Source: Candidatus Iainarchaeum sp.
GTDB taxonomy: Archaea; Iainarchaeota; Iainarchaeia; Iainarchaeales; VGJJ01
NCBI GenBank assembly: GCA_043803765.1
Contig: JAZDJQ010000014.1
Location: forward strand, 1,382 to 65,381
Direction: 5' to 3'
DNA: 64,000 nt
In this document: positions 2,178 to 32,295 of the stretch, one piece after another
Layout of the letters: every line of letters starts with the position of its first letter
Position numbering within the stretch: the stretch's first letter is position 1
Program-made: the position numbers and the translations under genes
Notes under the pieces: generated by a model
Databases searched by the model: none
The model's input: the letters and a program-made list of their open reading frames with translations, nothing else
What the model was told of the DNA's origin: nothing

Positions 2178-3434
2178 ATGAATGGCGTTCGAGATGTTTT
2201 AACCCTTCAGAAGATGGAATTGGAAAAACGGTTCCAAGAGCAGTATGTGGAACGGGACACCACACTCACAAAAGCCAAGGATAATTTAGTTCGCGTGATA
2301 ATAGGCCCGCGCCGTGCGGGAAAATCTTTTTTTACCGCCCATTGGCTGAAAAAAAATGCCAAATTTGGATACATTAATTTTGATGATGAAAAACTGGTCA
2401 CGGTGAAAGATTTCAACGAATTGCTTGCCATCACCGATACCCTGTATGACATTCCAGAAGTTCTCATGCTGGATGAAATTCAAAATTTGGACAAGTGGTA
2501 ATTGATTGCCAATCGATTACAGCGGGAGGGAAGAAAAATATTCATCACCGGTAGCAATTCAAATCTCTTGAGCAAAGAACTAGCGACTCATCTTACCGGA
2601 AGACACTTGCAGATAAGCATTTTTCCTTTTTCATTCAGCGAATATATTCAATTTCAAAACGAATCATTTACGGAAGTAAAAACAAAAGAAAAATTGATTG
2701 AATATGCCACGAAGGGGGGATATCCTGAACCCATCGTCAAAAATATGGATTACAAAGAATATTTATCCACCCTGCTTAATTCAATAATATATAAAGACAT
2801 CGTAAAAAGGCACAAGATACGAAAACCAAACGCCATCGAGGACATGGTCTTGTTTCTTCTTTCAAATGTGGGAAACGAATATTCCTATCAGCGTTTGGCA
2901 GAGTTAACCCAATCGAAAAGTTCCCATACGGTCCAGAAATATCTTGGTTATTTGGAAGAAGCGTTCGTTCTCTTCTCCCTGAAACGTTTTTCGTACAAAA
3001 CAAGAGAACAGATTACCTCTAACAAAAAAATTTATTCCATCGACAATGGATTTATTGGAGCAAAATCAACCAAGACGACGCAAGATCTCGGCAAGCTGTA
3101 TGAAAACATTGTTGCCATACACTTGAAAAAAGAAGAGATTGATGGAAAGATAAATGTTTATTATTGGAAAAGCCAGCAGCATGAAGAAGTGGATTTTGTC
3201 ATAAAAGAAAGATTGAAAATAAGTAAACTCATCCAAGTTTGCTATGATGCCACAAACCCAGATGCCAAGAAAAGGGAAATTCGTGCGTTGATAAAAGCCA
3301 AACAAGAACTCAAATGCAATGAATTGATTATTCTTACCCACGACTACGAAAACGAAGAGGAAGTAGAATGGTATGGTGAAAAAGCGAAAATTCGGTTTAC
3401 CCCATTATGGAAATGGCTGCTGGGAAAGCAATAA
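2178..3434 (+). pseudogene. COG1373-type AAA+ ATPase (Walker A plus a C-terminal DUF4143-like domain) interrupted by a single in-frame TAA at 2499-2501. It is a paralog of the intact gene at 10495-11775.
   Basis: ORFs 2178-2501 and 2502-3434 are in the same frame. GPRRAGKS is a Walker A motif. ...LDEIQNLDKW*LIANRLQREG aligns with LDEPQGKNGWNQFVNRLYENG of the intact copy. Confidence 0.6.
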
Positions 3435-3442
3435 CACTTTTA

Positions 3443-3456
3443 TGCCTCGGGGGAGG
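3443..3456. repeat. The 14-nt core atgcctcgggggag, identical to the 3' end plus 1-nt flank of tRNA-Met at 32135-32148. Putative att-core remnant.
   Basis: Exact match read directly. Lies immediately downstream of the ATPase pseudogene stop. Confidence 0.6.
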
Positions 3457-5852: not shown

Positions 5853-5905
5853 CAATGCCTCGGGGGCGAATAGAAGATAGGGGTAAACTGCCTTTTGTAA
5901 TGAAC
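5853..5905. repeat. tRNA-Met 3'-end core (caatgcctcggggg) followed by a roughly 45-nt conserved extension. Paralogous copy at 14672-14722.
   Basis: Alignment of 5853-5905 against 14672-14722: gcctcggggg..gaagatag.ggtaaactgcc.tttgtaa.gaacaata. Confidence 0.6.
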
Positions 5906-6027: not shown

Positions 6028-7317
6028 TCACTCATAACGTAAAGCCTCAATAGGTCTTAACTTAGAGGCGGTTCGTGCCGGGATGAGTCCTGCAATGACC
6101 CCGATAATGGTGGATAAGATAATGGCCATTAGAATCAACTCAATGGAAACATAGGTAGATGCTCCTCTCGCACCGGGCGTAGGAATGAAGCCCATTCCGG
6201 AAATGGCAAACGAAACAATCGTTCCTAAAATGACCCCAATAATCCCTCCCACGAATCCAAATAACCCTGACTCCATGACAAAAAGCAACAAAACTTCATT
6301 ATTGGTTGAACCCAATGCCTTGAGTATTCCTATTTCCTTTGTCTTTTCCAATACGGAAGTGAACATACTGTTAGCAACCCCCAGCGCTCCTACTACTAAT
6401 GATACTGCTGCTATCGCACCCAAGAAAAGAGTCAATGTTTCGGTTACCGAACCCACTTGTTCTTGAACGGCCTGCGAGGAAGTAACCGAAAAATCTTGGG
6501 TACGTTCAGTCACTTTCCGCGAAATTTGTAGGGAAGCCGTCAAGTCCTGCGTCGTCTGTTCCACTAATTCAGGGGCGGAAACCTTTGCTTGAATACTTGT
6601 GTACGTATCGCGGTTTACATCTTCCACTGTGTTCCACGCACTATTCAGGGACATGTAAATCGTGTTATCGCTTCCGCTTCCTCCAAATCCAGATCCTGAA
6701 GCAGAAAGAATTCCTACCACAGTGAAGGGCTTATCCTCCAATGTAATAATTCGGCCCAAGGTAATAGGTTGTTTGAATGTTTCATTCGCAATTCGATCTC
6801 CAATCACCACCCCGATTGAATCACTTGCTGTCAATAAACGTCCCGAAGCGAGAGAAACATTCGATGTCTGTGGCCACGTCGTGGGGTTAACCCCCTGCAC
6901 GCTCACATTGGATTTTTCTCCAACAAAAACGAGTTCTCCTCGGCCTGAAACAATTTCCGTGACCAATGTCACGTTGGGATTTGCGTTGATAATGATAGAG
7001 TCCTTTTTCGTTAAGGTTGGTTCCTCATCTGTTGTGCTGGTTGAGTTCGTGATAGTAATGGCACCCGACTCACCTCCTCCGGCTCGAAATCCTCCTCCGA
7101 ACCCTTGGGCACGACTAAAACCGGGAGAAATAGTAATGATGTCTGCACCAAAACCGGATAATTGTTGTTGCACATTCGCCTGTGCTCCCTCTCCAATTGA
7201 AATGATTGAAACCACTGCCGCCACTCCAATGATAATTCCCAATAGGGTAAGCCATGACCGTAGGCGGCGATGAAGAATACTGTTCAGAGATAAGGAAAAT
7301 GAATCCTTCAGCTTCAT
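6028..7317 (-). CDS. ABC transporter permease, MacB/FtsX type (N-terminal TM, large periplasmic domain, C-terminal FtsX 3-TM domain).
   Basis: MKLKDSFSLSLNSILHRRLRSWLTLLGIIIGVAAVVSIIS is a MacB-like N-terminus. C-terminal TM bundle. Confidence 0.8.
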   Translation of the reverse strand: MKLKDSFSLSLNSILHRRLRSWLTLLGIIIGVAAVVSIISIGEGAQANVQQQLSGFGADIITISPGFSRAQGFGGGFRAGGGESGAITITNSTSTTDEEPTLTKKDSIIINANPNVTLVTEIVSGRGELVFVGEKSNVSVQGVNPTTWPQTSNVSLASGRLLTASDSIGVVIGDRIANETFKQPITLGRIITLEDKPFTVVGILSASGSGFGGSGSDNTIYMSLNSAWNTVEDVNRDTYTSIQAKVSAPELVEQTTQDLTASLQISRKVTERTQDFSVTSSQAVQEQVGSVTETLTLFLGAIAAVSLVVGALGVANSMFTSVLEKTKEIGILKALGSTNNEVLLLFVMESGLFGFVGGIIGVILGTIVSFAISGMGFIPTPGARGASTYVSIELILMAIILSTIIGVIAGLIPARTASKLRPIEALRYE

Positions 7318-10494: not shown

Positions 10495-11775
10495 ATGGAA
10501 CGCGTTGCACTAGAGTTTGTGGTAAAGGACCAATTTGAAAATCTCCAAAAAAAGGAGCGAGGGTTGCCGCGTGAAACATTGGGTCGAATAACTCCGTTAA
10601 TGCGGCATAAAAGTGCGGTAGTTGTAACAGGAGTTCGTCGCTGCGGGAAATCAACCCTTTTGTTCCAGGTAATGGACCGGTTTTTCTCAAAGGGATTTTT
10701 TTACTTGAACTTTGCCGATGAACGATTGAACGATTTTGAAACAAGGGATTTTCAAGTATTGCATGAGATACTGATTAAGGAATTCGGGGACCAAAAAACA
10801 TTTTTTTTGGACGAACCTCAAGGGAAAAACGGCTGGAACCAATTTGTTAACCGGCTCTATGAAAACGGATACAAGTTCTTTATTACGGGATCAAATGCGG
10901 AGCTATTGAGCAAGGAAATTTCCACTTATTTGACCGGCAGGCACATGGATTTTCCGCTTTTTCCTTTTTCATTTAAGGAGATGTTATCCTTCAGGAATGC
11001 CGGGAAAACGATTAGGTCAACCCAAGACAAGGTACAAATTGAAAGCGCGTTTGAAAAATACATGGAAAAAGGCGGTTTTCCCGAGGTTTGGACGCAGGAA
11101 AACACCGATATTCTGGTTAAAGTATATGATGATATTATCAACAAGGATATTTTGGTTCGGCACCAAGTAAAAGACCAAAAGACATTCAAGGATTTGGCAC
11201 TCTTCCTCATATCCAATTGCGGGAAAGAATTTTCATATAACGCATTAAAAAAACAATTCAATCTTGGAAGCCCTAACACGGCCAAAACGTTTGTCGGATA
11301 TCTAACGGATGCGTTCCTGCTTATCGAGATAAATCAATTCGATTTTTCCTTAAAAAAGCAGGGCTTTTTGCCCAAAAAAATATACGGAATCGACACAGGA
11401 TTAGTCAATAAGATGGGGTTTCGCCTTTCTGACGACAACGGAAGGTTGTTGGAAAATATCGTTCTTCTCGAGCTGCTTAGACAGAACCAAAAAGTATTTT
11501 ATTGGAAAGATGACAAACAACGAGAGGTCGACTTCCTAATCATAGAAAAAAATAAGGTAAAGGAAGCTATCCAAGTTTCTTTTGAATTATCCGATGCTAA
11601 AACGAAAGATAGGGAAATAACCGGGCTAATCAGTGCGATGAAAAAATTCAATCTACAAACGGGAACGATTCTTACACGCCACACGGAAAAAAGCGAAAAG
11701 GCAGATAACAAAACCATCCATTTCATTCCGGTGTGGAAATGGCTAATCGAAAACGACCAATCCGCTGAACATTAA
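10495..11775 (+). CDS. COG1373-type AAA+ ATPase (DUF4143-like C-terminus), intact.
   Basis: Walker A GVRRCGKST; Walker B-like FFLDEPQ. Collinear with the pseudogene at 2178-3434. Confidence 0.75.
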   Translation: MERVALEFVVKDQFENLQKKERGLPRETLGRITPLMRHKSAVVVTGVRRCGKSTLLFQVMDRFFSKGFFYLNFADERLNDFETRDFQVLHEILIKEFGDQKTFFLDEPQGKNGWNQFVNRLYENGYKFFITGSNAELLSKEISTYLTGRHMDFPLFPFSFKEMLSFRNAGKTIRSTQDKVQIESAFEKYMEKGGFPEVWTQENTDILVKVYDDIINKDILVRHQVKDQKTFKDLALFLISNCGKEFSYNALKKQFNLGSPNTAKTFVGYLTDAFLLIEINQFDFSLKKQGFLPKKIYGIDTGLVNKMGFRLSDDNGRLLENIVLLELLRQNQKVFYWKDDKQREVDFLIIEKNKVKEAIQVSFELSDAKTKDREITGLISAMKKFNLQTGTILTRHTEKSEKADNKTIHFIPVWKWLIENDQSAEH

Positions 11776-11812: not shown

Positions 11813-11864
11813 TATGCCTCTGGAATCGACTTGAACTCCCTACCTCTTGGTTATGAATCCGGCG
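11813..11864 (-). repeat. Degenerate partial copy (pseudo-tRNA) of the 3' roughly 50 nt of tRNA-Met(CAU) on the same strand. Putative attL of the integrated element.
   Basis: Minus strand reads GCCGGATTCATAACC..GGGAGTTCAAGTC....CC.GAGGCA against the tRNA GCCGGATTCATAACCCGGAGGCCGGGAGTTCAAGTCTCCCCCGAGGCA, about 75% identical. The T-stem is no longer complementary. Confidence 0.55.
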
Positions 11865-11882
11865 TGATATTTGCCAGCCTCA

Positions 11883-13960: not shown

Positions 13961-14390
13961 CTATGGCAGACTCTCGATTATTTCTTTTGTGGAATAGATT
14001 TTGATTTTTTCTTGCGTTCCCAAAAGTTTATCGTTTGTCCAAATGGGAGACTTTTCTTTTAAAGCGAGGGCTAGAAAATCAATGTCTTCCGACAGTTCCT
14101 TATGATGGGTTTTTTCGGTCGATTCGATTAAATTTTTCGCTGTTTTCAAAAAAGAAGAATATTCTTCCAGTGGAATGAACTCCACACACGGCCAAATCAA
14201 ATCGTGCTTTTTCAAACTCTTCAATGGTTATTTCCGTTTTGTGCAATATCTCTTTTTGATGATTGTTTATCTCCTCTAACGCATACTCAGGAGAAACGAA
14301 TTCAAAGTCCTGACTGGTTGACAGTGACTTGAAAACAGAATTAGACCAAAAACAGGTAATCAGAATATTGGTATCGACCACGAGCTTCAT
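13961..14390 (-). pseudogene. PIN-domain (VapC-like) toxin gene split by a frameshift.
   Basis: N-terminal MKLVVDTNILI (ORF 14100-14390). The C-terminal PIN motif DIDFLALALKEKSPIWTNDKLL lies in the overlapping ORF 13961-14224. Homopolymer runs occur in the overlap. Confidence 0.6.
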
Positions 14391-14432: not shown

Positions 14433-14597
14433 TCAGTCCATTCGTACCAATTTGACAGACCAGCCCGAAATCGCTTCTTCTTCATTCAGTTTTCCAATCA
14501 ACTGTTTCTTCCGCTCAAAAGAAAGAATAGTCAAAACCTTTTCTTCAATATCTGACAGTTTGGCTTGAATCTGCTTGAGAGTAACCGCTTCGCTCAT
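14433..14597 (-). CDS. Putative antitoxin (54 aa) immediately upstream of the PIN gene. Below the ORF-track cutoff.
   Basis: My own translation of the minus strand gives MSEAVTLKQIQAKLSDIEEKVLTILSFERKKQLIGKLNEEEAISGWSVKLVRMD. It ends 40 nt before the PIN start. Confidence 0.35.
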   Translation of the reverse strand: MSEAVTLKQIQAKLSDIEEKVLTILSFERKKQLIGKLNEEEAISGWSVKLVRMD

Positions 14598-14671: not shown

Positions 14672-14722
14672 TATGCCTCGGGGGAGGGTGGAAGATAGCG
14701 GTAAACTGCCATTTGTAAGGAA
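14672..14722. repeat. tRNA-Met 3'-end core (atgcctcgggggag) plus a conserved extension. Paralog of 5853-5905.
   Basis: Exact 14-nt core, then roughly 45 nt that is about 85% identical to the 5.9-kb copy. Confidence 0.6.
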
Positions 14723-16580: not shown

Positions 16581-17276
16581 ATGGACCCCCAAATCAAAGA
16601 TGTTCTCACGCTTCTCGACGAAGCGGCCCATAAACGATGGTCGATTCGAGAAGAGCAGTTCAAGATGTATAAAATTGATACAACCGCAGTCGCCCAAGCC
16701 CAACAAATGGGTTTTATTCATTGGACCGGCGCAAACTATATTCTCACCGCAACAGGTCACGAAAAATTGTTACAATACGAGTCAGTCGATTCTCTACGAG
16801 AGATCCGAAAACACCTCCGAGTGGATAAAAAAGGCGTCATTTTTGATAGCAACGCGTACGATAAAATTCTAGAAGGAGCTTTGACAAAGAGTGATATCGA
16901 ATTGAGCCGACACAAAGGATTCGATTATTATATCACACACATCCAGGCAGACGAGGTTGTGCGTTGCCCGGAAGTCGACAGACGCCAGCGATTAACCCTT
17001 GCAATGCTCACGCTAAAGCCAATTGTTATCCCTACCGATTCAACGGTAGCAGGAGTATCACGGGTGGGATTTTCACGGTTAAGTGATGGACAAGACATGG
17101 AAAGCATTCGTAATGGCAGTCAAAGGCATACGAATGACGCATTGATAGGAGAAACTGCAATAAAAAATAAATTAATTCTTGTAACAGAGGACGATAGGCT
17201 TCGAACCAAAGTAAAAGATGCGAAGGGTATCGCAATGACTATCGCTGAATTCAAAAATGAAATCGAAAAAGAATAA
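16581..17276 (+). CDS. PIN-domain protein with an N-terminal extension of about 80 aa.
   Basis: GVIFDSNAY (first Asp motif) and the C-terminal DALIGETAIKNKLILVTEDD (PIN C-terminal motifs). Confidence 0.55.
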   Translation: MDPQIKDVLTLLDEAAHKRWSIREEQFKMYKIDTTAVAQAQQMGFIHWTGANYILTATGHEKLLQYESVDSLREIRKHLRVDKKGVIFDSNAYDKILEGALTKSDIELSRHKGFDYYITHIQADEVVRCPEVDRRQRLTLAMLTLKPIVIPTDSTVAGVSRVGFSRLSDGQDMESIRNGSQRHTNDALIGETAIKNKLILVTEDDRLRTKVKDAKGIAMTIAEFKNEIEKE

Positions 17277-17809
17277 TGAGAGTTATATTCATGAATTTTC
17301 AACCTTCAAACCAGCACCAAAAGTTTTTCGTCGAACATATATTGGCGGCTGGCAAAAAGTATACGAAACCAAAACCAATGGCCACATTACGTCGAACAGA
17401 CTTTGGAAAGGATGGATTTCTGGATTGCTATAATTCCTTTAACCAATATCTAAGGTGGCACTACTCTGGAACAGATAGGGACATGATAAATAGTTTTGTA
17501 CAAAATTTTGGTGCTACCTACCAAACTACTTATGATGGAGGATATCCAGAAAAGTTATATCGGGATTTAACATTCCTACAGAAAAAACAGGTTCCAAATC
17601 TAAGTCAACCAGGAAAATCAATTATCGGGATAAACGATCCGAAAGACTTGTCCCAAGTTATTGATTATTTGTATGTTATCCGATGTAATTTTAATCATGG
17701 ATCATTTTCAGTTCATGACGAACTTTACCAATCTATTGCGATACCTTCTTTTGAGGTTTTTTACTTAATTCTGTTCAAGATTCTTCGCCACGAAATACCA
17801 AATCAGTAA
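17276..17809 (+). CDS. Hypothetical protein.
   Basis: ORF only; its start overlaps the stop of the PIN gene. Confidence 0.3.
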   Translation: MRVIFMNFQPSNQHQKFFVEHILAAGKKYTKPKPMATLRRTDFGKDGFLDCYNSFNQYLRWHYSGTDRDMINSFVQNFGATYQTTYDGGYPEKLYRDLTFLQKKQVPNLSQPGKSIIGINDPKDLSQVIDYLYVIRCNFNHGSFSVHDELYQSIAIPSFEVFYLILFKILRHEIPNQ

Positions 17810-17827
17810 TCATTCTATCTCTAAAAA

Positions 17828-18337
17828 TCACTCAAAATGTATTGTTCCGTTTTCGGCTATTCGTGCGATTTGCCAGTCGTATTTCTTTTCTTTGACTACT
17901 TGGTTTAGTTGTTCTCGTTGTGCGTTAAGCGGGGAGTTTTTCAGGTTTTTTGATAGGAGTAAAATTTCGTCTACTGTTCCATTTTTTGTCATGCCGTCGA
18001 AGACCACGAAGTCGATTGGATTCAATATAGGTTTCATGTCGTAGGGGTTTATTTTCAGTTCTTTAAGGATGGGCGAGATCGCTTTTCTTATTACTTTTTC
18101 TGCGCCTAATTGCCCTTTTTCGATTTGAATTTTTCGAATGTTGGCTTCTTTTTCCTCAAACGATTCGACATTCTGTTCCAATACATTCATCTGTTTCTCG
18201 TAGTCGTCCAGCCATGTTTTTGGTGTTGGGGTTTTGGTGAATATCCGAAGGTCGGATACCCTGACTATTTCGTCACAGCACGGACAAAGGCAGAGTATTT
18301 TTCTAAATTCTTGGTACTCTTCTCCGAATCCTTTCAT
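17828..18337 (-). CDS. Zinc-ribbon plus Hjc-like (PD-(D/E)xK-fold) domain protein, paralog A. The catalytic ExK is apparently degenerate.
   Basis: LCLCPCCDEI Cys cluster; GAEKVIRKAISPILKELK...PIDFVVFDG...VDEILLLSKN. The start is taken at MKGFGEE (ATG 18335-18337), overlapping the upstream paralog's TGA as ATGA. Confidence 0.45.
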   Translation of the reverse strand: MKGFGEEYQEFRKILCLCPCCDEIVRVSDLRIFTKTPTPKTWLDDYEKQMNVLEQNVESFEEKEANIRKIQIEKGQLGAEKVIRKAISPILKELKINPYDMKPILNPIDFVVFDGMTKNGTVDEILLLSKNLKNSPLNAQREQLNQVVKEKKYDWQIARIAENGTIHFE

Positions 18338-18831
18338 TTTACCACCTTGAAGGATACTTTTTTGTCGTTTACTGCGTCTTTGACGGCTTTTTGGTGGGAG
18401 TTCAATCGTGCATTTCCTGTTTTTACTTCGATGAAACTCATGGATTCTATTTTGTTGTTGCAACAACCGTTGAAGGTGATCATGTCAATGGGTTCGCCTA
18501 AAAACCGACAATCGGGCAACGCCCATTTGAAATCTTTTAAGATCGGAAAGAATACTTCCATTTCTTGCCCGAAGCCAACCGCTCTTGCCGTGATCTCTAT
18601 TTTTTTAGTGTCTTCCAATGATTTACTCCTTTTCTCGAAATCTTTCTTTTGTTGCTCAAAATCTTTAAGCAAACGTGCCCGCACAGCTAAGGCTTCGGGA
18701 GGAAAAGACTTCGTTCCATCAAATAAGAATGCTTCACCCAGCTTGAAACTTTCATTACATGAAGGACATTCCGCGTAAAGCTTCGAATCCTTCAACTCAA
18801 GAATCGTTTCTTTGGTGTCTTTACCATCCAT
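18334..18831 (-). CDS. Zinc-ribbon plus Hjc-like PD-(D/E)xK nuclease domain protein, paralog B. The catalytic motifs are intact.
   Basis: ECPSCNESF; GQEMEVFFPILKDFKW...PIDMITFNG...IEVKTGNARL (E..., PD, ExK). The start is taken at MDGKDTK (18831) to avoid overlapping the upstream gene. Confidence 0.45.
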   Translation of the reverse strand: MDGKDTKETILELKDSKLYAECPSCNESFKLGEAFLFDGTKSFPPEALAVRARLLKDFEQQKKDFEKRSKSLEDTKKIEITARAVGFGQEMEVFFPILKDFKWALPDCRFLGEPIDMITFNGCCNNKIESMSFIEVKTGNARLNSHQKAVKDAVNDKKVSFKVVK

Positions 18832-18847: not shown

Positions 18848-19453
18848 TCACTTTTTCTTTTTCGGGGATAGGATAGTGAATTTCGCAACCAGTCCAAGGA
18901 CAATCAATCCGCCCACTATGAGAGCGATAGAAGAAAAATCGGATTCCGGTACTTTACTTTCAACAAAGTTCATTGTATTGGCATCTTCTCCCATATTTAG
19001 AGTAGAAGCCGATTTGAATGACACTGTATAATCGTCAACCAGTTCCCCGTTGTGAGTGGTAACCTTCGAAGGCATTGTAACTTTCGTAAGGATAGAAACT
19101 CCGGCAGGAGTCCTCTTATCCTCATAACGCAAATACTTTCCGTCCGTTTTTACAATAATTTTTACCGGATTTCCGCCTTCAGATGGAGATAAATCATATT
19201 CGATTATGAGTTCGGAATCAGTCTCTCTGCAAACGTTGTCGATTCGACTCAGGACAGATGGATCGGCTTCTGGACTATTTTGTGCCATATTTTTGAGCGA
19301 ATTACAACTAGCGTTCGCCAATATCCCCGTTTTATCCAAAGAAACAAGACGATGTACGCTACCGTCAGCATTCACTTTCTCAGTCTGGCTACCGGAAATA
19401 CAGCCAGAAAGTACGACCATTCCAACCAAAAAAATCAAAATCACCTGCTTCAT
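18848..19453 (-). CDS. Lipoprotein or membrane-anchored secreted protein.
   Basis: Signal peptide plus lipobox MKQVILIFLVGMVVLSGC. C-terminal TM plus KKKK. Confidence 0.5.
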   Translation of the reverse strand: MKQVILIFLVGMVVLSGCISGSQTEKVNADGSVHRLVSLDKTGILANASCNSLKNMAQNSPEADPSVLSRIDNVCRETDSELIIEYDLSPSEGGNPVKIIVKTDGKYLRYEDKRTPAGVSILTKVTMPSKVTTHNGELVDDYTVSFKSASTLNMGEDANTMNFVESKVPESDFSSIALIVGGLIVLGLVAKFTILSPKKKK

Positions 19454-19466
19454 TTTTTGCCTCGTT

Positions 19467-20192
19467 TTATTGCTCCGTATAATTTCTGAATCGTGCCCTT
19501 ATTTGGTCTCCACCTATTCTTGCTACTCCGTTTATTTCAACTTTGTTAAATTGGCTTACATCGAGGGTTCCGGTGTAAACCAATGTTCCATTGTAGTAGA
19601 CATTGTACCCCGTTAGTGTCTTTTGGATTTTGTAGGTGTCAAAAGTTGAAGAAGGTAAATCGGGAGAGACATATTTGAAACTGTCGCTACCGTTTACCCG
19701 TTCGATAATGAATACGTTTGAGTTGTATTGCGGGTCGGTAATGTCCCTATGCTTGTTTACAATGAGGGCATTTTGATTATCTTTAACAAACCAAATACCT
19801 GCTGAAGCCGCGCTCGAGGGCAAATTTTCCAACGCAACATCAACTTGCACAGTCGTTTTGGTTGTTGGCCTACTGATTCTTCCCTCACTAACCCATGCCC
19901 CTTGCCAAGAATTAGTTATCGACTGGCCTTCAACCGTTAGAATAGGCTGATTACTACCTGAAACGGTCACACCAAACAGAGGCATACTATTCCAATTCCA
20001 AGAGTATCCGCCCCAAGAAAATCCTGGTCGACAAATTTGAACGGCAGTAGTAACTGACTGTGCGGAAACATTTTGAAAAGAAACAAACAGGACGGAAGCG
20101 AACAAGAGCAATACCAAGAGAGTTGCTCTATTTCTCCCAAGTCCGAAAAGAGCTTGGGGTTTAGCGCTGTTGACAGTTTTTTTCGTTATCAT
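19467..20192 (-). CDS. Secreted beta-rich protein, possibly a lectin/LamG-like fold.
   Basis: Signal peptide ...LLVLLLFASVLFVSFQNVSAQ. Confidence 0.45.
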   Translation of the reverse strand: MITKKTVNSAKPQALFGLGRNRATLLVLLLFASVLFVSFQNVSAQSVTTAVQICRPGFSWGGYSWNWNSMPLFGVTVSGSNQPILTVEGQSITNSWQGAWVSEGRISRPTTKTTVQVDVALENLPSSAASAGIWFVKDNQNALIVNKHRDITDPQYNSNVFIIERVNGSDSFKYVSPDLPSSTFDTYKIQKTLTGYNVYYNGTLVYTGTLDVSQFNKVEINGVARIGGDQIRARFRNYTEQ

Positions 20193-20492: not shown

Positions 20493-20756
20493 TTAATCCA
20501 TTTTGACCTTGTCCAAATTTATGTTGGCTTTGACCAGCATTTCTCGGCCATCCCGCCGCTTCTCTACCAATCCCTCTTTCTCCAGCATAGTGACGTAATC
20601 TGCACACTTATTGTAGGCCAGATTGGTCTCTCTACTAAGTTCTGTCACCGTTTTGGACCCATTTTGGGTTAGCTCGAGCATCCTGAACCGAGTCTTATTG
20701 GCCATGACTCTGATTTTTCGATAAAGCTCCTCACGACGAATACCAGTCTTGAACAT
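20493..20756 (-). CDS. Winged-helix (ArsR/MarR-like) transcriptional regulator, divergent from mod. Possible controller of the R-M system.
   Basis: RFRMLELTQNGSKTVTELSRETNLAYNKCADYVTMLEKEGLVEKRRDGRE is an ArsR-like HTH. Confidence 0.55.
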   Translation of the reverse strand: MFKTGIRREELYRKIRVMANKTRFRMLELTQNGSKTVTELSRETNLAYNKCADYVTMLEKEGLVEKRRDGREMLVKANINLDKVKMD

Positions 20757-20825: not shown

Positions 20826-22874
20826 TTGGAAATGCCGGACTCCTTGATTGAAGAACTTCCTCGCATAATGGCGTATGGAAAAAAGGAAGCTCAGCGCATC
20901 TTAGACGGACTCTCCAAGCAAAATCGGGTTAGTTTACAAACAAATGAAATGGTTTTGCCCACGAAGGCCAAGGCCGGAATTTTCTCCCATTTTGGCCAGG
21001 CTCTACACAGTTCTACTGATGTTGAATGGTTCAACCGAATGATTTACGGAGACAACATTCTAACGATGCAGGCTTTATTAGCCGGCGACTCCGAAACAGG
21101 GCTGCCTTCCATGCGAGGAAAAATAGACCTAATCTACATCGACCCACCATTTGACTCCAAAGCAGATTATCGGACAAAAATTCATTTACCGCATACAGAC
21201 ATTGAGCAGCGTCCAACTGTCATTGAACAATTTGCTTATTCAGACACATGGGAACATGGGACAACATCATACTTGAAAATGATGGTACCACGACTTATCC
21301 TCATGAGGGAACTACTAAGCGAGAAGGGAAGTATCTACATTCACATTGATTGGCACGTTGGACACTATGTAAAAGTAATGATGGATGAAATATTCGGAAA
21401 AGAGAATTTTATCAACGAGATTATTTGGCAAAAAGTAAGGTCTTCAAAAGGACAAGCAAAATCGTTTGGCAATGTTCATGATTCAATTTTTGTTTATGCG
21501 AAAACAAAATCTTATTTCTTCAATAAATTGTATACCGAACACGATCAAGAAAGACTTGATACTCATTATAATAATATCGAATTAGAAACTGGTAGGAAAT
21601 ATCAACTGGCAGATTTTACACAAAAAGGTCAAGGTGAACCAAAAAAATTTTCGAATATATTACTGACACCTCCTACTGGTAAACATTGGATTTGGTCACA
21701 GGAAAGAATTAATGAGGGAATGGTAAAGGGATTAATTGTTTTTACTAAATCAGGCAAGCCAAGAGTAAAAAGATTTTTAGATGAGTCGCAAGGATCTCCA
21801 ATTGAAGACATTTGGACTGATGTATTTCCAATTAACTCTCAAGCCATCGAATCTATCGGTTACCCAACACAAAAACCAGAAGGACTTCTAGAACGAATAA
21901 TCAAGGCATCTTCAAACGAAGGAGATTTAGTTTGCGACTTCTTTTGTGGTTCTGGCACAACAGCTACTATCGCAGAAAAACTTGGTAGAAAATGGATTGC
22001 TTCTGATTTAGGTAAGCCAGCTTGCATGATTATGCGGAAAAGATTGATTGACCAAGATGCGAAGCCTTTTTTGTATCAGTCTATTGGAGATTATCAGAAG
22101 GAGCAGTTCGAACATTCGCAACACAAGACAATCGGAGAGCTATCCCATGTCGTGATAAATTTGTATGGGGCATTACCTTTTCCTTACGGCCAGCATCCAC
22201 AAAATAATTTAGGGTATATCAAGCAGTCTAAAACCCTTGTTTTTGTCGATTCGCCTTCTAAAATGACGGGGGCTAATACTTTGAAAAGAGCGCGGGAGTT
22301 GCGTGCTTCTTTTGCAGGAGGGTGGGAGAAAGTAGTTGTTTTGGGTTGGAATTTTGTCTGGGATATTGGACAAATCGTTGAAACAATGAATGACCCAAAA
22401 TTAGAGGTTTTGGTCATTCCGCCCGACCTACTTGATCGCTTGAAAACCAAGGCCAGTTATGAGCAACTAATCAAATCAGGAAAAATCCGCTTTTCCTCCC
22501 TGCAGTATTTGACCGTGAAACCCATCATTAAGAACGATTCCGATAACGATCAGGACGAGTTGATTGTTTCCCTTGACAATTATATTCTGTTATCCCCAGA
22601 CGCGCTTCCACTGGACAAAGAGAACAAGGAAAAGCTAGAAAAAACAATCGAGAAAGACCCATTGAGCTTGGTAGAATATTGGAATATTGACCCCGATTAC
22701 GATGGAGAAATTTTTCGCAGCAAATGGCAGGAATATCGAGAAAACAACAAAGACCTCCGAATTAAACGAACCGCCAAAATTCTCGTACCCAAAATCAAAG
22801 GGAAGCGAAAAGTATGTGTGAAAGCAGTCGATGTTTTTGGTTTTGAAAGCGCTACTGTCCAGGAGATTGATTAA
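20826..22874 (+). CDS. mod: Type III restriction-modification DNA methyltransferase (Mod), N6-adenine/N4-cytosine beta class.
   Basis: Motif [11 protein letters not shown] precedes motif [10 protein letters not shown]. Directly followed by res, with the stop abutting the start. Confidence 0.8.
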
Positions 22875-25775
22875 ATGGTTAATATCAAATCTCTTGGAAC
22901 GGGAAGTATCCCGCTTCGGTTAGCCGATTTGATTTCTGAAATGGCCAATAAGGAATGGGAAGAAGGAACATTTATCGAGAAAACGACTCCTATCACGCGA
23001 GATCTAATGCGGTATTGGGACCCGAAAGGAACTTTTTCCGATTCAAGGAAAGTAAATTTCCACGAGGGACAATGGCAGGCTATTTTGAATGCTATTTATG
23101 TCCATGAAATATTGAAAGTGAAAAGCGTCCACGACTTGTATATGTCTATTCGCCCGGAGTTATTGGCTGAGATGGATATGATAGATTTGAAAAAAGAGAA
23201 ATACGACTACCCGAAATATTGTATCCGAATGGCAACCGGAACGGGAAAAACATGGATTTTATCGGCATTGTTGATTTGGCAATATCTTAATGCGAAATAT
23301 GAAGAAAAACCGTCGAATCGATTTTTCAAAAATTTTTTATTGGTCGCGCCGGGAATTATTGTATATGAGCGGTTACTGGATGCATACCTTGGTAAACGAA
23401 AGGAAGATAGCAAAAGGGAATTTGAGGAGTCCGATTTCAAAAAATTCGAATCGCTTTTAATTCCAACTGCCTATACTGAAGAGATCTTAGGTTTTATCCA
23501 ATCTAGCGTGTGCCAAAAAGACGAAATTGGAAGTAAAGTCACTGGAGACGGGCTGATTGCGATTACTAATTGGCACTTATTAATGGGGGACGAAGAAGAC
23601 GATGAAGAAGGGACCCCGCTTGACACACCATACAAGGCTATTCGAAAAATGCTTCCCATTACTCCCGGCAAAACGGGAAAGCATTCGTTGGAAACGTTGG
23701 ACAATCAATACCTGCGCGGGAAGGGGATGGATTTCCTGGTGAATCTTACGGACTTGGTTGTATTCAATGATGAAGCCCACCATTTGGGTGAATTCAAGAA
23801 AGAGGATGAAATACTGGAGAAGAAATGGCAACAAGCATTGGACATGATTGCAAAAAGTAAAAGGAACTCTTTTTTGCAAGTTGATTTTTCCGCCACCCCA
23901 TATATCATAACGGGATCGAAAAAGAGAACGAAACACTTTTTCCCGCATATTATTACTAATTTTGAAATTGTTCGAGCCATTAAACTTGGATTGGTTAAAA
24001 CGGTGGCCATTGATAAGCGAAAGGAAATTGCTTCACTACCATTGGAGTTCAAGGCTGAACGAGAGGGGAACACAATCAATTTGTCCGATGGTCAGCGGAT
24101 CATGCTCAGCGCAGGGTTGGAACGGTTAAAAATTTTGGAAGAGGGATTTGAAAAAGAAGACAAAAAAAAGCACCCGAAAATGTTGGTGACGTGCGAAGAC
24201 ACCTCTGTGGTGCCGTTAGTAACGGAATTTCTGAAACAAAAAGGATTATCCGAAGAAGAAATACTTGAAATCCATTCCAATAAAAAAGGAGAAATCGGCC
24301 AGGTAGAATGGGAAAAAATAAAGATGCGATTATTCAATGTGGACAAGAGCCAAAACCCAAAAATAATCATTTCTGTGCTGATGCTGCGCGAGGGCTTTGA
24401 TGTGAATAATATTTGCGTAATTGTCCCTCTACGCTCAAGCACATCCTATGTTTTATTGGAACAGACGATTGGCAGGGGTCTCCGACTCATGTGGCGTGAG
24501 CCAATATACGAGGACAGCAAACGCGAAAACAGGGAAAAATTATTGATTCGAAAGGAAGAACCAGATAACTATATGGATATTTTGTCCATTGTCGAGCATC
24601 CCGCATTTATCGAGTTTTATGAAAAGGAGTTAAGCGAAGCGATTGGACAGACCAAAGTGCTTCCAAAAAAGGATAAAGTGGTGGGGGATATCATTTCCAT
24701 CGGCCTGAAAGAAAATTATCAAAATTACGATTTCTTCTGGCCAGTTATAATCCATGATAAAGAAGAATACCTGAAATCCGAGGAACTTTCCATCGAAAAA
24801 CTGCAACCTTTTCCAATCAGTTTGGAAGAACTAAAACCATTCATCAATCGAGCAGGTGACACATTCTATGGGGAAGAATTGACCGTCAAGACAAAGTTTG
24901 GGGAATACACAGTAACTTCTGATATTTTTTCAGCCAAGAGCTATAATTCGTTTATTCAAAAAATTGTGAACGCTGTCAGCACTATCACAGTAAAAATTGG
25001 GAAAAAATCGCCTAAAAATTTTCCTACCATGCAAATCAATACTGCCATCGTGGCAAAATTAACTGATGAATACATTCGGACGAGGTTATTTGGGCAAAAG
25101 TTCGACCCTTTACTCGGAAATAACTGGAGAGTCTTGGTCATAACACAGGAACGAATCATTCAGCACATTATCAAAAATATTAGTCAATGCATTTATGACT
25201 TACAAAATAACCTAGACGTTCGCGATGCCCGAATTGAAAAGAGGTATTTTTCCAGTATTGGAGAGATGAAAATACGGGATACATATTCTATCAATGTAGC
25301 CAAAACAATCTACGATAAAATAGGGTTTCCATCGAATAAAGGGGGATTTGAAAAAGCATTTATCGAGTTCATTGATTCGGATTCAAAGGTAAAGGCTTTC
25401 ATGAAAATCAACGAGTATTACCATGATTTTGCCTGTATAATGTACCTTCGGGATGATGGAATGCTGCCTCGATATTATCCCGATTTCATTGTTCGTATAG
25501 CTGACCAAGTCTATTTAGTTGAAACAAAAGCCGACAGGGATCTGAATAATGTGAACGTCAAACAAAAACGATTGGCGACGTTGGATTGGATTGCTAAAGT
25601 GAATAAGTTAAAACTGGAAGATCGAATGAGTTGTATCTGGAATTATGTTCTACTCGGCGAAAATACATTCTATGGAATGAGTGAAAAAGGCGCCACTACC
25701 CAGGAAATACTCGAGTACGCCAAACTATCTAAGGCCAAAGTCGAAGGAACACTTGGAGACTATTTGACACAATGA
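22875..25775 (+). CDS. res: Type III restriction enzyme Res subunit (SF2 helicase plus C-terminal PD-(D/E)xK nuclease).
   Basis: Walker A MATGTGKTW, DEAH box VVFNDEAHHLG, helicase motif VI QTIGRGLR. C-terminal YPDF...VYLVETK. Confidence 0.8.
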   Translation: MVNIKSLGTGSIPLRLADLISEMANKEWEEGTFIEKTTPITRDLMRYWDPKGTFSDSRKVNFHEGQWQAILNAIYVHEILKVKSVHDLYMSIRPELLAEMDMIDLKKEKYDYPKYCIRMATGTGKTWILSALLIWQYLNAKYEEKPSNRFFKNFLLVAPGIIVYERLLDAYLGKRKEDSKREFEESDFKKFESLLIPTAYTEEILGFIQSSVCQKDEIGSKVTGDGLIAITNWHLLMGDEEDDEEGTPLDTPYKAIRKMLPITPGKTGKHSLETLDNQYLRGKGMDFLVNLTDLVVFNDEAHHLGEFKKEDEILEKKWQQALDMIAKSKRNSFLQVDFSATPYIITGSKKRTKHFFPHIITNFEIVRAIKLGLVKTVAIDKRKEIASLPLEFKAEREGNTINLSDGQRIMLSAGLERLKILEEGFEKEDKKKHPKMLVTCEDTSVVPLVTEFLKQKGLSEEEILEIHSNKKGEIGQVEWEKIKMRLFNVDKSQNPKIIISVLMLREGFDVNNICVIVPLRSSTSYVLLEQTIGRGLRLMWREPIYEDSKRENREKLLIRKEEPDNYMDILSIVEHPAFIEFYEKELSEAIGQTKVLPKKDKVVGDIISIGLKENYQNYDFFWPVIIHDKEEYLKSEELSIEKLQPFPISLEELKPFINRAGDTFYGEELTVKTKFGEYTVTSDIFSAKSYNSFIQKIVNAVSTITVKIGKKSPKNFPTMQINTAIVAKLTDEYIRTRLFGQKFDPLLGNNWRVLVITQERIIQHIIKNISQCIYDLQNNLDVRDARIEKRYFSSIGEMKIRDTYSINVAKTIYDKIGFPSNKGGFEKAFIEFIDSDSKVKAFMKINEYYHDFACIMYLRDDGMLPRYYPDFIVRIADQVYLVETKADRDLNNVNVKQKRLATLDWIAKVNKLKLEDRMSCIWNYVLLGENTFYGMSEKGATTQEILEYAKLSKAKVEGTLGDYLTQ

Positions 25776-30785: not shown

Positions 30786-32075
30786 CTATCTGGGTCGCAT
30801 GACTTCGAGTGCTTGCTCAGGAGTCAGTTGATCTACTTTTACGTTGAGTTTGTTCATCGCTTCAACCATCGCATTCAGCACGCTTCGTATTTGCCCATTC
30901 TCCTCCTGCATTTGTGTTAATTTATCTTTGTATTCCAGTCGCGCTTCCAATGTGAGGGGATTGTTGCATTTTTTGCAAAGAAGATTCGTGAACTCATTTA
31001 GTTCACCGCAGATATTGCACAATCGTGGTTTTAGAATACTTTCCTCGTCCTTTTCTTTTTTCCCTAATCCATAGATTTTTCGAACGGCGTCGTGAACATC
31101 GCGCCCAGAAAGATGAATATAGGTAGCGGGCATTTCACTACCAATTTGCCAGCCCATGACCTTGCACAATTGGGCCTCCGTTAATCGTCCAGCCAAATAA
31201 GTTGCGCGGGAGTGCCTCCAGTGATGCGGATTATAGGGTTTGTTGATACCTGCCCTCGTTGTTGTTTCGTCCAGAATTTTTCGGATTGAAGCATAGGAGA
31301 GTCTTTTTCCGCGATGTACGGGAGAAACAATCACAAACAAAGGCGCATTCTTGTCATCGCGTAGGGGGTGAATGTCTAACCATCCGCGAAGAAACGGAAC
31401 ACTGGACACCAAAAGGACTTGCCTCATTCCGGTTTTTCCATCAAGCATGGCTGTGGCTTCGGTTCCATCAAATTGAATTGATTTAATTTTAGCATTACCA
31501 ATCTCACCGATGCGCGCACCCGTTTCCCACAAAATAGAAATGAGCGCTTTTTTCATGGGATGATCGGCCACTTGAATGATTTTGATGATTTCGTCCTCTG
31601 ATAGCATCTCTTCTGGCAGTTTGTGCGAGTTTCCGCTTCGGATGCATTTAATCCATCGGACTTGGGACGGAAAAAAGTCGTTGTCGCCCAACAACCATTT
31701 GTAAAAGGCCTTGAGCATGCGTTTGTGCATAGTTCTTGTAGTCTCCCCCCACCCATTTCGATTCACGATTTGAGAAACAAGGTGTTCAATATCTTCTCGT
31801 GTAGCGGACTCGAAATCCTTCCCGATCATTTCAGCCAAATTAGCCATCGTGAATAATACGCGGATTCGGCGGGCAAGACTGATGCCTCCTTCATTTTCCA
31901 AATGAATTCGATAGCGTTCAATCGTGCGTTTGTTTGTCTCGCTGATAATGTACGGTTTACCCTGCTTTCCGTGCTTCTTCTCAAAATCGCGTGGATATTT
32001 TTCTGGGAAAATTCGACTTAACAATAGCTCGTAGCGTCTTTCGTAGTTATGAAAACTCGTGGCTTCTGGCGGCAT
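30786..32075 (-). CDS. int: Tyrosine recombinase/integrase (XerC/D-phage integrase family) with a C-terminal zinc ribbon.
   Basis: Catalytic residues: WETGARIGE (Arg), HHWRHSRATY (HxxR), YIHL (Tyr). C-terminal CNICG...CKKC. Immediately adjacent to the tRNA-Met 3' end. Confidence 0.85.
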   Translation of the reverse strand: MPPEATSFHNYERRYELLLSRIFPEKYPRDFEKKHGKQGKPYIISETNKRTIERYRIHLENEGGISLARRIRVLFTMANLAEMIGKDFESATREDIEHLVSQIVNRNGWGETTRTMHKRMLKAFYKWLLGDNDFFPSQVRWIKCIRSGNSHKLPEEMLSEDEIIKIIQVADHPMKKALISILWETGARIGEIGNAKIKSIQFDGTEATAMLDGKTGMRQVLLVSSVPFLRGWLDIHPLRDDKNAPLFVIVSPVHRGKRLSYASIRKILDETTTRAGINKPYNPHHWRHSRATYLAGRLTEAQLCKVMGWQIGSEMPATYIHLSGRDVHDAVRKIYGLGKKEKDEESILKPRLCNICGELNEFTNLLCKKCNNPLTLEARLEYKDKLTQMQEENGQIRSVLNAMVEAMNKLNVKVDQLTPEQALEVMRPR

Positions 32076-32135
32076 ATAGGCACTCCCCGTTCGGTTGGTT
32101 TTATTCTTTACGGGGGCACTTTACTGCCATCTTCA

Positions 32136-32209
32136 ATGCCTCGGGGGAGACTTGAACTCCCGGCCTCCGGGTTATGAATCCGGCGCTCTAACCAACTGAG
32201 CTACCAAGG
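32136..32209 (-). tRNA. tRNA-Met/Ile2 (anticodon CAU), elongator type (G1:C72). No encoded CCA.
   Basis: Manual fold: GCCTTGG-TA-GCTC-AGTTGGTTA-GAGC-G-CCGGA-TTCATAA-CCCGG-AGGCC-GGGAG-TTCAAGT-CTCCC-CCGAGGC-A. Confidence 0.8.
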
Positions 32210-32295
32210 CGGTGGATGAGAAGAATCGCCAAAGAAACCCTTTAAAATGAGCGGAGGTGAAGACTGGAAATAACCTCTTGTTAGTGTCTTATTCC

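Follow-up and report, generated by a model that had tools for sequence, protein, structure and literature searches.

The closest described relatives of the gene pair analyzed here belong to PF10107/COG4741, a domain family placed in the PD-(D/E)xK superfamily in 2005 and 2012 (PMC1189080, PMC3424549). The family has a conserved catalytic motif, E-(V/I)D-E(V/I)K, and an N-terminal hydrophobic helix that may be a transmembrane or a leader helix (PMC1189080). In the classical form, the gene stands alone and its product has a transmembrane (TM) helix at the N terminus. In our searches, 2,645 clusters at 50% identity matched the family profile at E ≤ 1e-3. For some 20 years, PF10107/COG4741 has stood as a predicted family of nucleases without experimental characterization, and no solved structure was retrieved by sequence and profile searches of the PDB. 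A second system that invites comparison is the Holliday junction resolvase Hjc, exemplified by the Pyrococcus furiosus enzyme (1GEF), a homodimer of about 120 to 140 aa per chain with a minimal PD-(D/E)xK core and two active sites.

The pair lies in a 64,000-nucleotide stretch of a contig from Candidatus Iainarchaeum sp., referred to below as the window. It consists of two overlapping genes, which we call A and B, with the following layout.

18334-18831, minus strand: gene A, 165 aa, ATG at 18831; PF10107 PD-(D/E)xK nuclease, predicted catalytic subunit
17828-18337, minus strand: gene B, 169 aa; degenerate PF10107 paralog (pseudo-nuclease)
18334-18337, minus strand: ATGA overlap of the TGA stop of A and the ATG start of B, read from the sequence
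18342-18346, minus strand: GGTGG, a Shine-Dalgarno-like motif 4 nt upstream of the ATG of B, inside the last codons of A

A preliminary description of this DNA had proposed a tandem, ATGA-overlapping and translationally coupled pair of paralogs, and both ORFs, the overlap, and the paralogy were recovered. A and B are paralogs over nearly their full length (BLASTP identity of 25%, E = 3e-13), and profile-profile comparison with hhalign gave a probability of 97.9% (E = 3.3e-13) over 136 aligned columns, including the cysteine knuckle discussed below. The start of A at 18831 agrees with the N termini of its homologs. The overlap is consistent with translational coupling, and GGTGG may serve as the ribosome signal for B.

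Both proteins match PF10107, with 81.9 bits for A (E = 5.7e-23) and 58.5 bits for B (E = 9.1e-16) against a curated gathering score of 23.8 bits, and the domain is precomputed on 240 of the 240 homologs listed. The domain itself is therefore known. NCBI names proteins of the A and B types “Holliday junction resolvase-like protein,” and NCBIfam has no match for either. The architecture had been thought not to be a described one. This holds for the paired form, since literature searches on PF10107/COG4741 and its annotated name yielded just two surveys of the superfamily (PMC1189080, PMC3424549) and incidental mentions, in which the pair does not appear. It does not hold for the domain; what is undescribed is a subfamily, a paired soluble variant within a catalogued family.

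The resemblance to Hjc that had also been suggested is confined to motifs. Pyrococcus furiosus Hjc shows the same pattern as A (GxxxE, 24 residues, D, ExK), and the top hhalign segment between the two sets PID/FIEVK of A on VD33/IEVK46-48, in register with D33, E46, and K48, although this alignment is not significant. Neither A nor B has a Pfam match to PF01870 (Hjc) at E ≤ 1. Against a Thermococcales Hjc profile built from a low-diversity alignment, hhalign gave a probability of 1.2% for the nuclease-domain profile of A and 0.14% for B. Since these values are not significant, we rejected membership in the Hjc family. Hjc also lacks the knuckle, the long helix, and the inactive partner found here, and the conservation of an active gene together with an inactive one argues against a simple Hjc-like homodimer.

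Within PF10107, the pair differs from the classical members in several respects. By hydropathy, an N-terminal TM helix is absent from both proteins: the maximum over 19 residues is 0.89 in A and 1.13 in B, versus 2.0 to 3.5 in TM-type singletons (loci L061 to L087). The A/B subfamily is soluble, with a Cys/His knuckle and a long helix in place of the TM helix, and it carries conserved stretches of its own, namely, LFDGTKPFP in A and RVSDL...TWLD in B. It also comes as a catalytic gene plus a degenerate one, whereas the classical proteins are singletons. The nuclease motifs of the singletons, by comparison, are nearly identical to those of the pair (GxxxEQxxP...D.RF.G.PID..VFNG...FVEVK.G). Soluble single-gene active forms with a B-like N terminus occur as well (L065, P0302, and P0318).

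The nuclease-type domains occupy the C-terminal parts of both proteins.

18337-18588, minus strand: residues 82 to 165 of A, minimal nuclease domain (Pfam match, residues 81 to 164)
17831-18124, minus strand: residues 72 to 169 of B, degenerate nuclease-like domain with an extra C-terminal beta-hairpin (Pfam match, residues 58 to 159)

One of the two copies had been reported to keep the full E/D/ExK set and the other to have lost it. The full set belongs to the upstream gene, at 18334-18831, and the asymmetry extends across the family. The motifs quoted earlier are all present: A has G88..E92, P114-I-D116, and I134-E135-V-K137, and in B, P107-I-D109 is accompanied by ILLLSK where ExK would be expected. 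The family motif E-(V/I)D-E(V/I)K is accordingly complete in A (E92, I115-D116, and E135-V-K137) and reduced to I108-D109 in B. In A, the pattern reads GxxxE92, 24 residues, D116, 19 residues, E135-x-K137, and every one of the 74 homologs has these four residues, E92, D116, E135, and K137. B keeps the aspartate of PID (D109) and has K85 instead of the helix Glu and S129 and N131 instead of the ExK residues. Among 78 archaeal B homologs, D109 is invariant, position 131 is variable, the helix Glu position is Lys in 47 and Glu in 1, and the position of the ExK Glu is Ser in 69. In bacterial and viral copies of B, the ExK position still holds an Asp, and an inactive partner may thus be a feature of the archaeal clade only. 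The 78-homolog alignment of B contains 22 invariant columns, and mean column identity in the A and B families is 65 to 67%. For a defense gene, the sequences of A and B are highly conserved, which counts against the explanation we favor below. The B protein is 100% identical to P0121, from a Candidatus Diapherotrites metagenome-assembled genome.

The PD-(D/E)xK core is an alpha-beta-beta-beta-alpha-beta unit in which helix 1 contributes the Glu, strand 2 begins with the Asp, and strand 3 carries (D/E)xK. The AF2 model of A follows the order alpha-beta-beta-beta-alpha at low confidence (pLDDT <50 in the nuclease domain) and was too poor there for a structure search; that of B (pLDDT about 70 to 78) follows alpha-beta-beta-beta-alpha-beta-beta. 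PDB searches with A, its family profile, and a profile of the nuclease domain alone returned just coiled-coil or chance matches. A Foldseek search of the PDB with the B model gave no significant match, and the fold assignment therefore rests on profile membership and the order of secondary structure elements; in BFVD, the sole match to the B model was a viral protein of the same family (E = 0.014).

Each protein had been described as a Cys cluster, a coiled-coil linker, and a C-terminal nuclease domain, and in both we found a Cys cluster, a long helix, and a PD-(D/E)xK-type motif, in that order. The N-terminal elements are as follows.

18739-18780, minus strand: residues 18 to 31 of A, beta-hairpin knuckle with C22-P-S-C25 (AF2 strands 19 to 22 and 27 to 30, pLDDT >83)
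18541-18699, minus strand: residues 45 to 97 of A, long helix running into the catalytic helix with E92 (AF2), putative coiled coil
18248-18298, minus strand: residues 14 to 30 of B, knuckle C16-x-C18-P-C20-C21 followed by RVSDL (AF2 strands 15 to 17 and 24 to 26)

The long helix of B spans residues 42 to 86 in the AF2 model. PDB sequence-profile matches to the helical stretch of A were coiled-coil proteins only. The Cys cluster had been called a zinc ribbon in each protein, a label that does not fit: a zinc ribbon has two CxxC-type knuckles on two beta-hairpins in one chain, with four ligands, and both A and B have a single knuckle and lack a second. With two ligands per chain, a tetrahedral site would need two chains. 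The presence of one Cys/His knuckle per chain thus suggests a zinc site shared between A and B. In this regard, the A knuckle offers two Cys/His ligands across more than 50 loci, where the variants CPCG, CPxC, SPCGH, and EHxxC amount to Cys-to-His swaps; a few distant A-type representatives (e.g., P0241 and P0272) have a single obvious ligand. In B, C16, C18, P19, and C21 are invariant in the 78 archaeal homologs, and the CPxC motif (C18 and C21) is retained in bacterial and viral B proteins too. Most archaeal B members carry one or two extra adjacent cysteines in the knuckle and, with three or four clustered Cys, could bind metal alone.

Conservation of the pair elsewhere had been set in advance as a test that could refute the initial interpretation, and the pair is conserved: A is followed by B in 52 nonredundant loci. 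The distance between the genes is −4 to +2 nt in 49 of these and exactly the −4 overlap in 27. The distance matrices of A and B are strongly correlated (r = 0.90, Mantel P = 0.001, 49 pairs). Where the contig extends beyond A, the single case lacking B is L044, a 3′-truncated remnant; in L030, B is frameshifted and A appears intact. No conserved third gene emerged among 260 flanking ORFs pooled from the 52 loci, and the pair is a self-contained module.

This arrangement may be explained in more than one way. First, A and B could be independent proteins, each acting alone or as a homo-oligomer, with their adjacency a relic of tandem duplication. Their heteromer is itself deduced from sequence, and a B protein with three or four Cys could fold around its own metal. 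Yet the order is fixed, the start/stop overlap recurs in most of the 52 loci from archaea, bacteria, and viruses, the two genes have diverged in step, and a dead B under purifying selection strong enough to fix 22 columns is hard to explain without a partner. We therefore give this scenario very little credence. Alternatively, A and B may form an obligate heteromer, a metal-dependent PF10107 PD-(D/E)xK endonuclease with one active site, carried as island cargo and probably serving defense or the maintenance of its element. We rate this second scenario, taken as a whole, at about even chances.

In the heteromer that we infer, A would be the catalytic subunit, and B, a paralog without three of the four catalytic residues, would be a structural or DNA-binding partner. 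Translational coupling would favor 1:1 stoichiometry. The helices, of some 45 to 50 residues each, could keep the subunits in register as a parallel coiled coil, and one Cys/His knuckle from each chain would complete a shared zinc site, in the manner of a hook of the Rad50 type or of a zinc ribbon divided between two chains. This putative clamp of knuckle and helix would take the place of the membrane helix of classical members. With a single active site, an A:B heterodimer would be expected to introduce nicks or to cleave a single strand of a DNA structure, unlike a homodimeric resolvase with its paired cuts.

The pair is present in DPANN, Bathyarchaeia, Thorarchaeota, methanogens, Nitrosopumilus, some bacteria, and two viral contigs. 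This distribution is patchy over distant phyla, at 45 to 60% identity, and one-genome-per-species scans of 185,579 species returned about 57 pair-type loci, a number that depends on the motif pattern used. Among close relatives, homology covers the pair and nothing more, and the DNA on either side is rearranged. Viral contigs, phages, and plasmids seldom carry the pair, which we counted against the favored heteromer explanation. In the window, it lies within a putative integrated element.

11828-32210: putative integrated element of about 20 kb holding the pair, supported by tRNA-Met, integrase, the 37-nt repeat, and GC content
11828-11864: partial direct copy of the tRNA-Met 3′ half (37-nt repeat, 89% identity)
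20826-25775: Type III restriction-modification (R-M) system, element cargo 2 kb from the pair
30786-32075, minus strand: tyrosine integrase abutting tRNA-Met (Pfam PF00589, E = 8.7e-17)
32137-32210: intact tRNA-Met, element boundary

GC content is about 0.40 over 10 to 26 kb, versus about 0.44 to 0.47 in the flanks. The mobile-element context proposed at the outset is thereby substantiated by a tRNA-Met/integrase element with a direct repeat around the pair. As for the neighbors named at the time, the PIN genes are real element cargo, one of them a weak match and the other frameshifted; an NTase gene near the pair was not found with Pfam, NCBIfam, or PADLOC. Three 429-aa ORFs (6028, 30786, and 35905-37194) were considered as IS copies and rejected because they are mutually unrelated, two of them being a MacB/FtsX permease and the integrase. 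Elsewhere, a tyrosine integrase lies within 6 kb of the pair in 7 of the 52 loci and in 0 of 20 singleton loci; R-M genes, defense genes, and integrases recur near pair loci, and many pair loci sit among ribosomal-protein and other housekeeping genes. No family of PADLOC-DB v2.0.0 (2023 library) matches A or B at E ≤ 1.

Under the heteromer explanation, the pair would spread horizontally as cargo of integrated elements and of variable or defense islands, and its most likely role would then be in conflicts of the host, or of the element, with foreign DNA. A defense or addiction role is plausible, although the absence of PADLOC matches and the many pair loci amid housekeeping genes weigh against it. 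A more specific form of this idea, that A and B are an unrecognized, self-contained two-gene conflict system, widespread among archaea and shared with some bacteria and viruses, in which a zinc “hook” and a parallel coiled coil clamp together a nuclease with one active site, is tentative, and we hold it to be possible rather than probable; it would give PF10107/COG4741 its first function.

The same context can be read differently. The pair could be a DNA repair or recombination enzyme of the host or the element, cutting flaps, forks, or junctions as a structure-specific endonuclease in the manner of Mus81-Eme1 or XPF-ERCC1, with no defense role. The motif pattern and E-to-D spacing shared with Pyrococcus furiosus Hjc agree with such an enzyme, as do the high conservation across phyla, the many loci in small DPANN genomes that lie amid core genes, including those of the ribosome and of tRNA modification, the retention of the pair in related integrated elements whose other cargo differs, and the lack of a linked sensor or regulator gene. 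Vertical inheritance, however, would be expected of a core repair enzyme, whereas the pair is sporadic, its similarity crosses phyla, its flanks are rearranged even in close relatives, and R-M, defense, and integrase genes recur nearby. On balance, we regard a purely repair-related role as unlikely, though it deserves serious weight.

The R-M genes raise the possibility of a heterodimeric restriction endonuclease, be it one of Type II with its methyltransferase close by, as for BbvCI and Bpu10I, or a modification-dependent one of Type IV. In L008 and L009, the gene immediately after the pair, on the same strand, encodes a C5 methyltransferase; methyltransferase domains occur in about 8 of the 260 neighboring genes, and the window has its Type III system close by. 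That system, however, has its own Res subunit, and the closest relative, L013, has the pair without an R-M system. Most pair loci have no adjacent methyltransferase, so that the consistently linked cognate enzyme that defines Type II R-M is not found across the 52 loci; no specificity or reader domain is recognizable, and 45 to 60% identity across phyla is atypical of restriction enzymes. We consider a restriction enzyme highly improbable.

A toxin-antitoxin-like addiction module would instead make A a toxic homodimeric nuclease and B a paralogous decoy, binding A into a heterodimer that is inactive or has a single site, so that losing B or the element would free A and kill the cell. The module has two coupled, tightly coevolving genes, it is cargo of integrated elements, and in the window, PIN toxin genes lie beside it; the single-gene active forms with a B-like N terminus make homodimeric activity plausible. 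On the other hand, B has no recognizable autoregulatory DNA-binding domain (no HTH, RHH, or AbrB in the Pfam search) and matches A in size and conservation, traits seldom seen in a labile antitoxin. With the toxin gene first, the order would be a minority arrangement, and decay has struck both genes (L044) or B alone with A apparently intact (L030), a state that would be lethal if A alone were toxic. Addiction of this kind therefore appears quite improbable to us.

By its sequence, then, A/B is a well-defined gene pair, a predicted nuclease in an already catalogued domain family. For that family, the paired subfamily is a tractable entry point, being soluble and of about 165 aa per subunit, and it yields concrete predictions: a 1:1 complex, a shared zinc, and one active site. 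The pair is one of few conserved accessory modules common to DPANN, Bathyarchaeia, Asgard (Thorarchaeota), methanogens, and Thaumarchaeota, lineages whose defense and mobile-element biology is poorly known, and as a defense or addiction module, it would be a new system for archaea.

Several known systems share features with the pair. In BbvCI and Bpu10I, too, the two PD-(D/E)xK subunits are paralogs encoded side by side, and mutants of these enzymes act as nickases. Both of their subunits are catalytic, however, and to our knowledge, a cognate methyltransferase is always linked, whereas B is dead and the pair has no consistently linked methyltransferase. The heterotetrameric (alpha2beta2) tRNA-splicing endonuclease of Nanoarchaeota and Crenarchaeota offers a parallel in its evolution, as duplication was followed by subfunctionalization into catalytic and structural subunits. 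This endonuclease cleaves RNA without metal, using a Tyr-His-Lys triad, is unrelated to A/B in sequence, and gave insignificant Foldseek matches (E >4); a role like that of the splicing endonuclease was rejected because the catalytic chemistry differs and no match was significant.

The Rad50 zinc hook resembles the proposed clamp in form. There, a CxxC from each of two chains holds one shared Zn, and each A or B chain has a single CPxC(G)-type knuckle beside a long helix. In Rad50, the hook lies at the tip of an intramolecular, antiparallel coiled coil and links two copies of the same chain. The A/B knuckle, by contrast, is located at the N terminus with a single helix behind it, and through putative zinc binding, it would connect two distinct paralogs. 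In the division of labor between subunits, the likeness is to Mus81-Eme1 and XPF-ERCC1, structure-specific nucleases in which a catalytic subunit is paired with a paralog that lacks catalytic residues, leaving one active site. These eukaryotic enzymes are of the ERCC4/XPF fold family and dimerize via HhH2 domains; A/B belongs to a different fold family, and the resemblance is one of analogy only. Should the pair be a repair enzyme, it would represent a prokaryotic analogue of the eukaryotic active/inactive heterodimeric nucleases.

Two candidate nuclease genes lie on the minus strand of the window, and the two genes upstream of them code for predicted secreted or membrane proteins:

17828-18337, minus strand: gene B, 169 aa, head to tail with A
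18334-18831, minus strand: gene A, 165 aa, ATG at 18831
18848-19453, minus strand: 201-aa predicted secreted/membrane protein directly upstream of A, weak LppM-like match
19467-20192, minus strand: 241-aa predicted secreted/membrane protein upstream of A, no match

The TGA stop codon of A and the ATG start codon of B share the four bases ATGA, and a Shine-Dalgarno-like motif (GGTGG) lies within the last codons of A, 4 nt 5' of the B start. The proteins are paralogous over nearly their full length (25% identity and E=3e-13 by BLASTP), and profile-profile comparison of the family alignments gave 97.9% probability (E=3.3e-13, 136 columns). ORFs, overlap, and both comparisons confirm the tandem overlapping paralogs of the preliminary description; the copy that it saw to keep IEVK is the upstream gene, A (18334-18831). 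The stop of the upstream neighbor is 16 nt from the ATG of A.

Both proteins belong to PF10107 (Endonuc_Holl), A with 81.9 bits and B with 58.5 bits against a Pfam cutoff of 23.8. Pfam describes this family, which equals COG4741, as an [quoted passage not shown] Profile methods placed it in the PD-(D/E)xK superfamily in 2005 and 2012, as a minimal core that carries the motif E-(V/I)D-E(V/I)K after an N-terminal transmembrane helix and without an assigned function (PMC1189080, PMC3424549). In addition, B is 100% identical to a Candidatus Diapherotrites MAG protein that NCBI names "Holliday junction resolvase-like protein." The domain is therefore already known. The identical protein also marks the window as DPANN archaeal DNA. 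In an exhaustive profile search, the wider family comprised 2,645 clusters (50% identity) with E<=1e-3, of which 1,512 reached E<=1e-10. PADLOC and NCBIfam hold no model matching A or B, and PDB sequence and profile searches detected no solved structure of any relative.

The pair is conserved as a unit elsewhere. B follows A in 7/7 genome contexts of homologs, and a scan across 185,579 species, each represented by one genome, returned 77 loci, among which A and B HMMs identified 52 non-redundant A/B pairs. Wherever a high-scoring A is followed by enough sequence, B comes immediately 3' of it; the low-scoring matches are transmembrane-anchored single-gene members. The gap is -4 nt at 27 of the 52 loci, -1 at 9, 0 at 7, and +1 or +2 at 6, and the other three have a frameshifted B (L030) or start-codon or spacing differences (L038 and L073). 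The L030 copy (6475-6955) is decayed, the frameshift splitting B. On long contigs, A lacks a B only in L044 (1040-1483), where A itself is a decayed remnant truncated at its 3' end. Across 49 pairs, the matrix of pairwise distances among A proteins correlates with that among B proteins (r=0.90, Mantel p=0.001). That A and B act as independent proteins seems very improbable to us.

The archaeal hosts in the scan include DPANN (Diapherotrites and Woese-, Pace-, Nano-, Aenigm-, and Micrarchaeota), Bathyarchaeia, Thorarchaeota, Methanoregula, Methanomassiliicoccales, Thermoplasmatota, and Nitrosopumilus. The pair also occurs in a small number of bacterial MAGs, Bacteroidota and others (L058, L060, L063, and L073), and on two IMG/VR viral contigs (L089 and L090); in L090, two small ORFs lie between A and B. 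Deposited phages and plasmids yielded distant singletons only.

The two proteins differ in their catalytic residues. Across 74 homologs of A, E92, D116, E135, and K137 are invariant, as are G88, P96, R109, P114, G139, and Q147. In 78 homologs of B, the helix-Glu position holds Lys in 47 and Glu in just 1, the ExK Glu position holds Ser in 69, and the ExK Lys position varies; the PID-motif Asp, D109, is invariant, as are D100, P107, L128, and R159. Given these substitutions, B is predicted to be a pseudo-nuclease, conserved as such across the archaeal clade. Bacterial and viral copies of B retain Asp where ExK has its Glu (LLD-S/H-K), so the inactivation may be clade specific.

The N-terminal Cys cluster reported for each protein is present, yet "zinc ribbon" is wrong for A or B alone, since each chain has a single Cys/His ligand hairpin, or knuckle, and a second is absent from both. 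The knuckle of A reads CPSC in the window and CPCG in most homologs; those without the first Cys have either a shifted Cys (SPCGC) or a His adjoining the other Cys (SPCGH, EHxxC). Such exchanges between Cys and His are typical of metal ligands. In B (CxCPxC), C16, C18, and C21 are invariant in archaeal members and C20 occurs in 61/78, while bacterial and viral copies retain only CPxC of the cluster. The simplest reading would be a four-ligand site built from one A knuckle and one B knuckle. In the classical family members that these scans also returned, the N-terminus is instead a strong transmembrane helix (hydropathy 2.0-3.5, versus 0.9 for A and 1.1 for B). The few soluble single-gene members (L065, 812-1285; P0302; P0318) combine a B-like N-terminus (CxCPxC..RxSD..WLD) with the full E/D/ExK set and probably represent a homodimeric ancestor of the pair.

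The pair lies in a low-GC stretch (~0.40 across 10-26 kb, about 0.44-0.47 in the flanks) within a putative integrated element of ~20 kb, whose cargo includes the Type III R-M system and the two PIN genes. The list covers the element and its surroundings:

2502-3434, plus strand: AAA_14/DUF4143 ATPase gene, seemingly N-terminally truncated
10495-11775, plus strand: second AAA_14/DUF4143 ATPase gene, immediately beyond the element's left end
11828-11864: direct copy of the tRNA-Met 3' half, 37 nt, 89% identical, ~20 kb from the tRNA
13961-14390 and 14433-14597, minus strand: PIN_2 (PF10130) toxin gene, split in two overlapping ORFs
16581-17276, plus strand: 231-aa protein, its C-terminus weakly matching PIN (E=3.9e-4, below cutoff)
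17276-17809, plus strand: 177-aa protein, no match in Pfam, NCBIfam, or PADLOC
20493-20756, minus strand: small winged-helix (wHTH) regulator, divergent, ahead of the Type III R-M system
20826-25775, plus strand: complete Type III R-M system, Mod 682 aa (N6_N4_Mtase), Res 966 aa (ResIII/Helicase_C/RE_endonuc)
30786-32075: tyrosine integrase, adjoining tRNA-Met
32137-32210: intact tRNA-Met

Integrase, tRNA-Met, and the 37-nt direct repeat around the pair bear out the proposed mobile-element context. Similarity of the tRNA copy reaches about 11814-11872 when mismatches are allowed. The motif ATGCCTCGGGGG(AG), 12-14 nt, matches the 3' acceptor end of tRNA-Met (32134-32149) and recurs at 3442-3455, 5853-5866, and 14673-14686; ~55-90 nt around the copies also match contig L013. 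These copies may be relics of earlier att sites or belong to a small repeat element.

Of the neighbors noted earlier, PIN genes are present, one weak scoring and one frameshifted, and no NTase gene was detected near the pair with Pfam, NCBIfam, or PADLOC. The PIN_2 halves match profile positions 1-64 and 63-115, reflecting either pseudogenization by a frameshift or a sequencing error; its antitoxin could be encoded by an upstream 54-aa ORF. The 231-aa and 177-aa genes form a second start/stop-overlapping pair, convergent with the nuclease pair. For the latter, a toxin/decoy-antitoxin module is an unlikely explanation, and a heterodimeric restriction enzyme is unlikelier still.

In close relatives (L001, L012, and L013; about 86% nucleotide identity), homology begins and ends at the pair borders (window about 17821-18817) and flanking sequence is rearranged; of the three, L013 retains the pair together with the integrase/tRNA end and lacks the R-M and PIN blocks. 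By this pattern, the pair behaves like a separate module within a variable element. Nucleotide similarity to the 241-aa gene is detectable 5' of the pair in L012 and L013, and L013 has two same-strand ORFs there, an arrangement that more distant loci do not show.

The best-supported mechanism would be an obligate heteromeric PD-(D/E)xK endonuclease with A catalytic and B non-catalytic, its subunits held together by two long helices and the shared Cys/His metal site and its A:B stoichiometry set by translational coupling. We consider a heteromeric nuclease with one active subunit probable; that it also has a defense or conflict role is tentative, falling somewhat short of even, and the combined statement of both we place at an even balance. 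The preliminary interpretation is, overall, partly supported. Its claim of an undescribed architecture applies to the paired soluble subfamily, and the domain is the known PF10107/COG4741: we found no description of a soluble, knuckle-bearing, strictly paired active/inactive subfamily, or of its distribution, in the literature or PADLOC. The domain family and superfamily assignment are known. For poorly studied archaea, the pair is a clean module open to testing, with no surprising mechanism so far.

The suggested Hjc-like domain holds for the motif pattern but not for family identity. Neither protein matches PF01870 (Hjc) in Pfam at E<=1, and the nuclease-domain profile reached only 1.2% probability against a Thermococcales Hjc profile, so we rejected Hjc identity. 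Within that 1.2% comparison, the best segment places PID/FIEVK on VD33/IEVK46-48 of Hjc, and the GxxxE-to-D spacing (24 residues) is identical to that of Pyrococcus furiosus Hjc. A structure-specific repair or recombination nuclease is possible, although we consider it rather unlikely. Hjc makes symmetric paired cuts, whereas the proposed A/B heterodimer, having one active site, would be expected to nick or cut one strand. The shared metal site of this heterodimer would amount to a split zinc ribbon, with a logic like that of the Rad50 hook.
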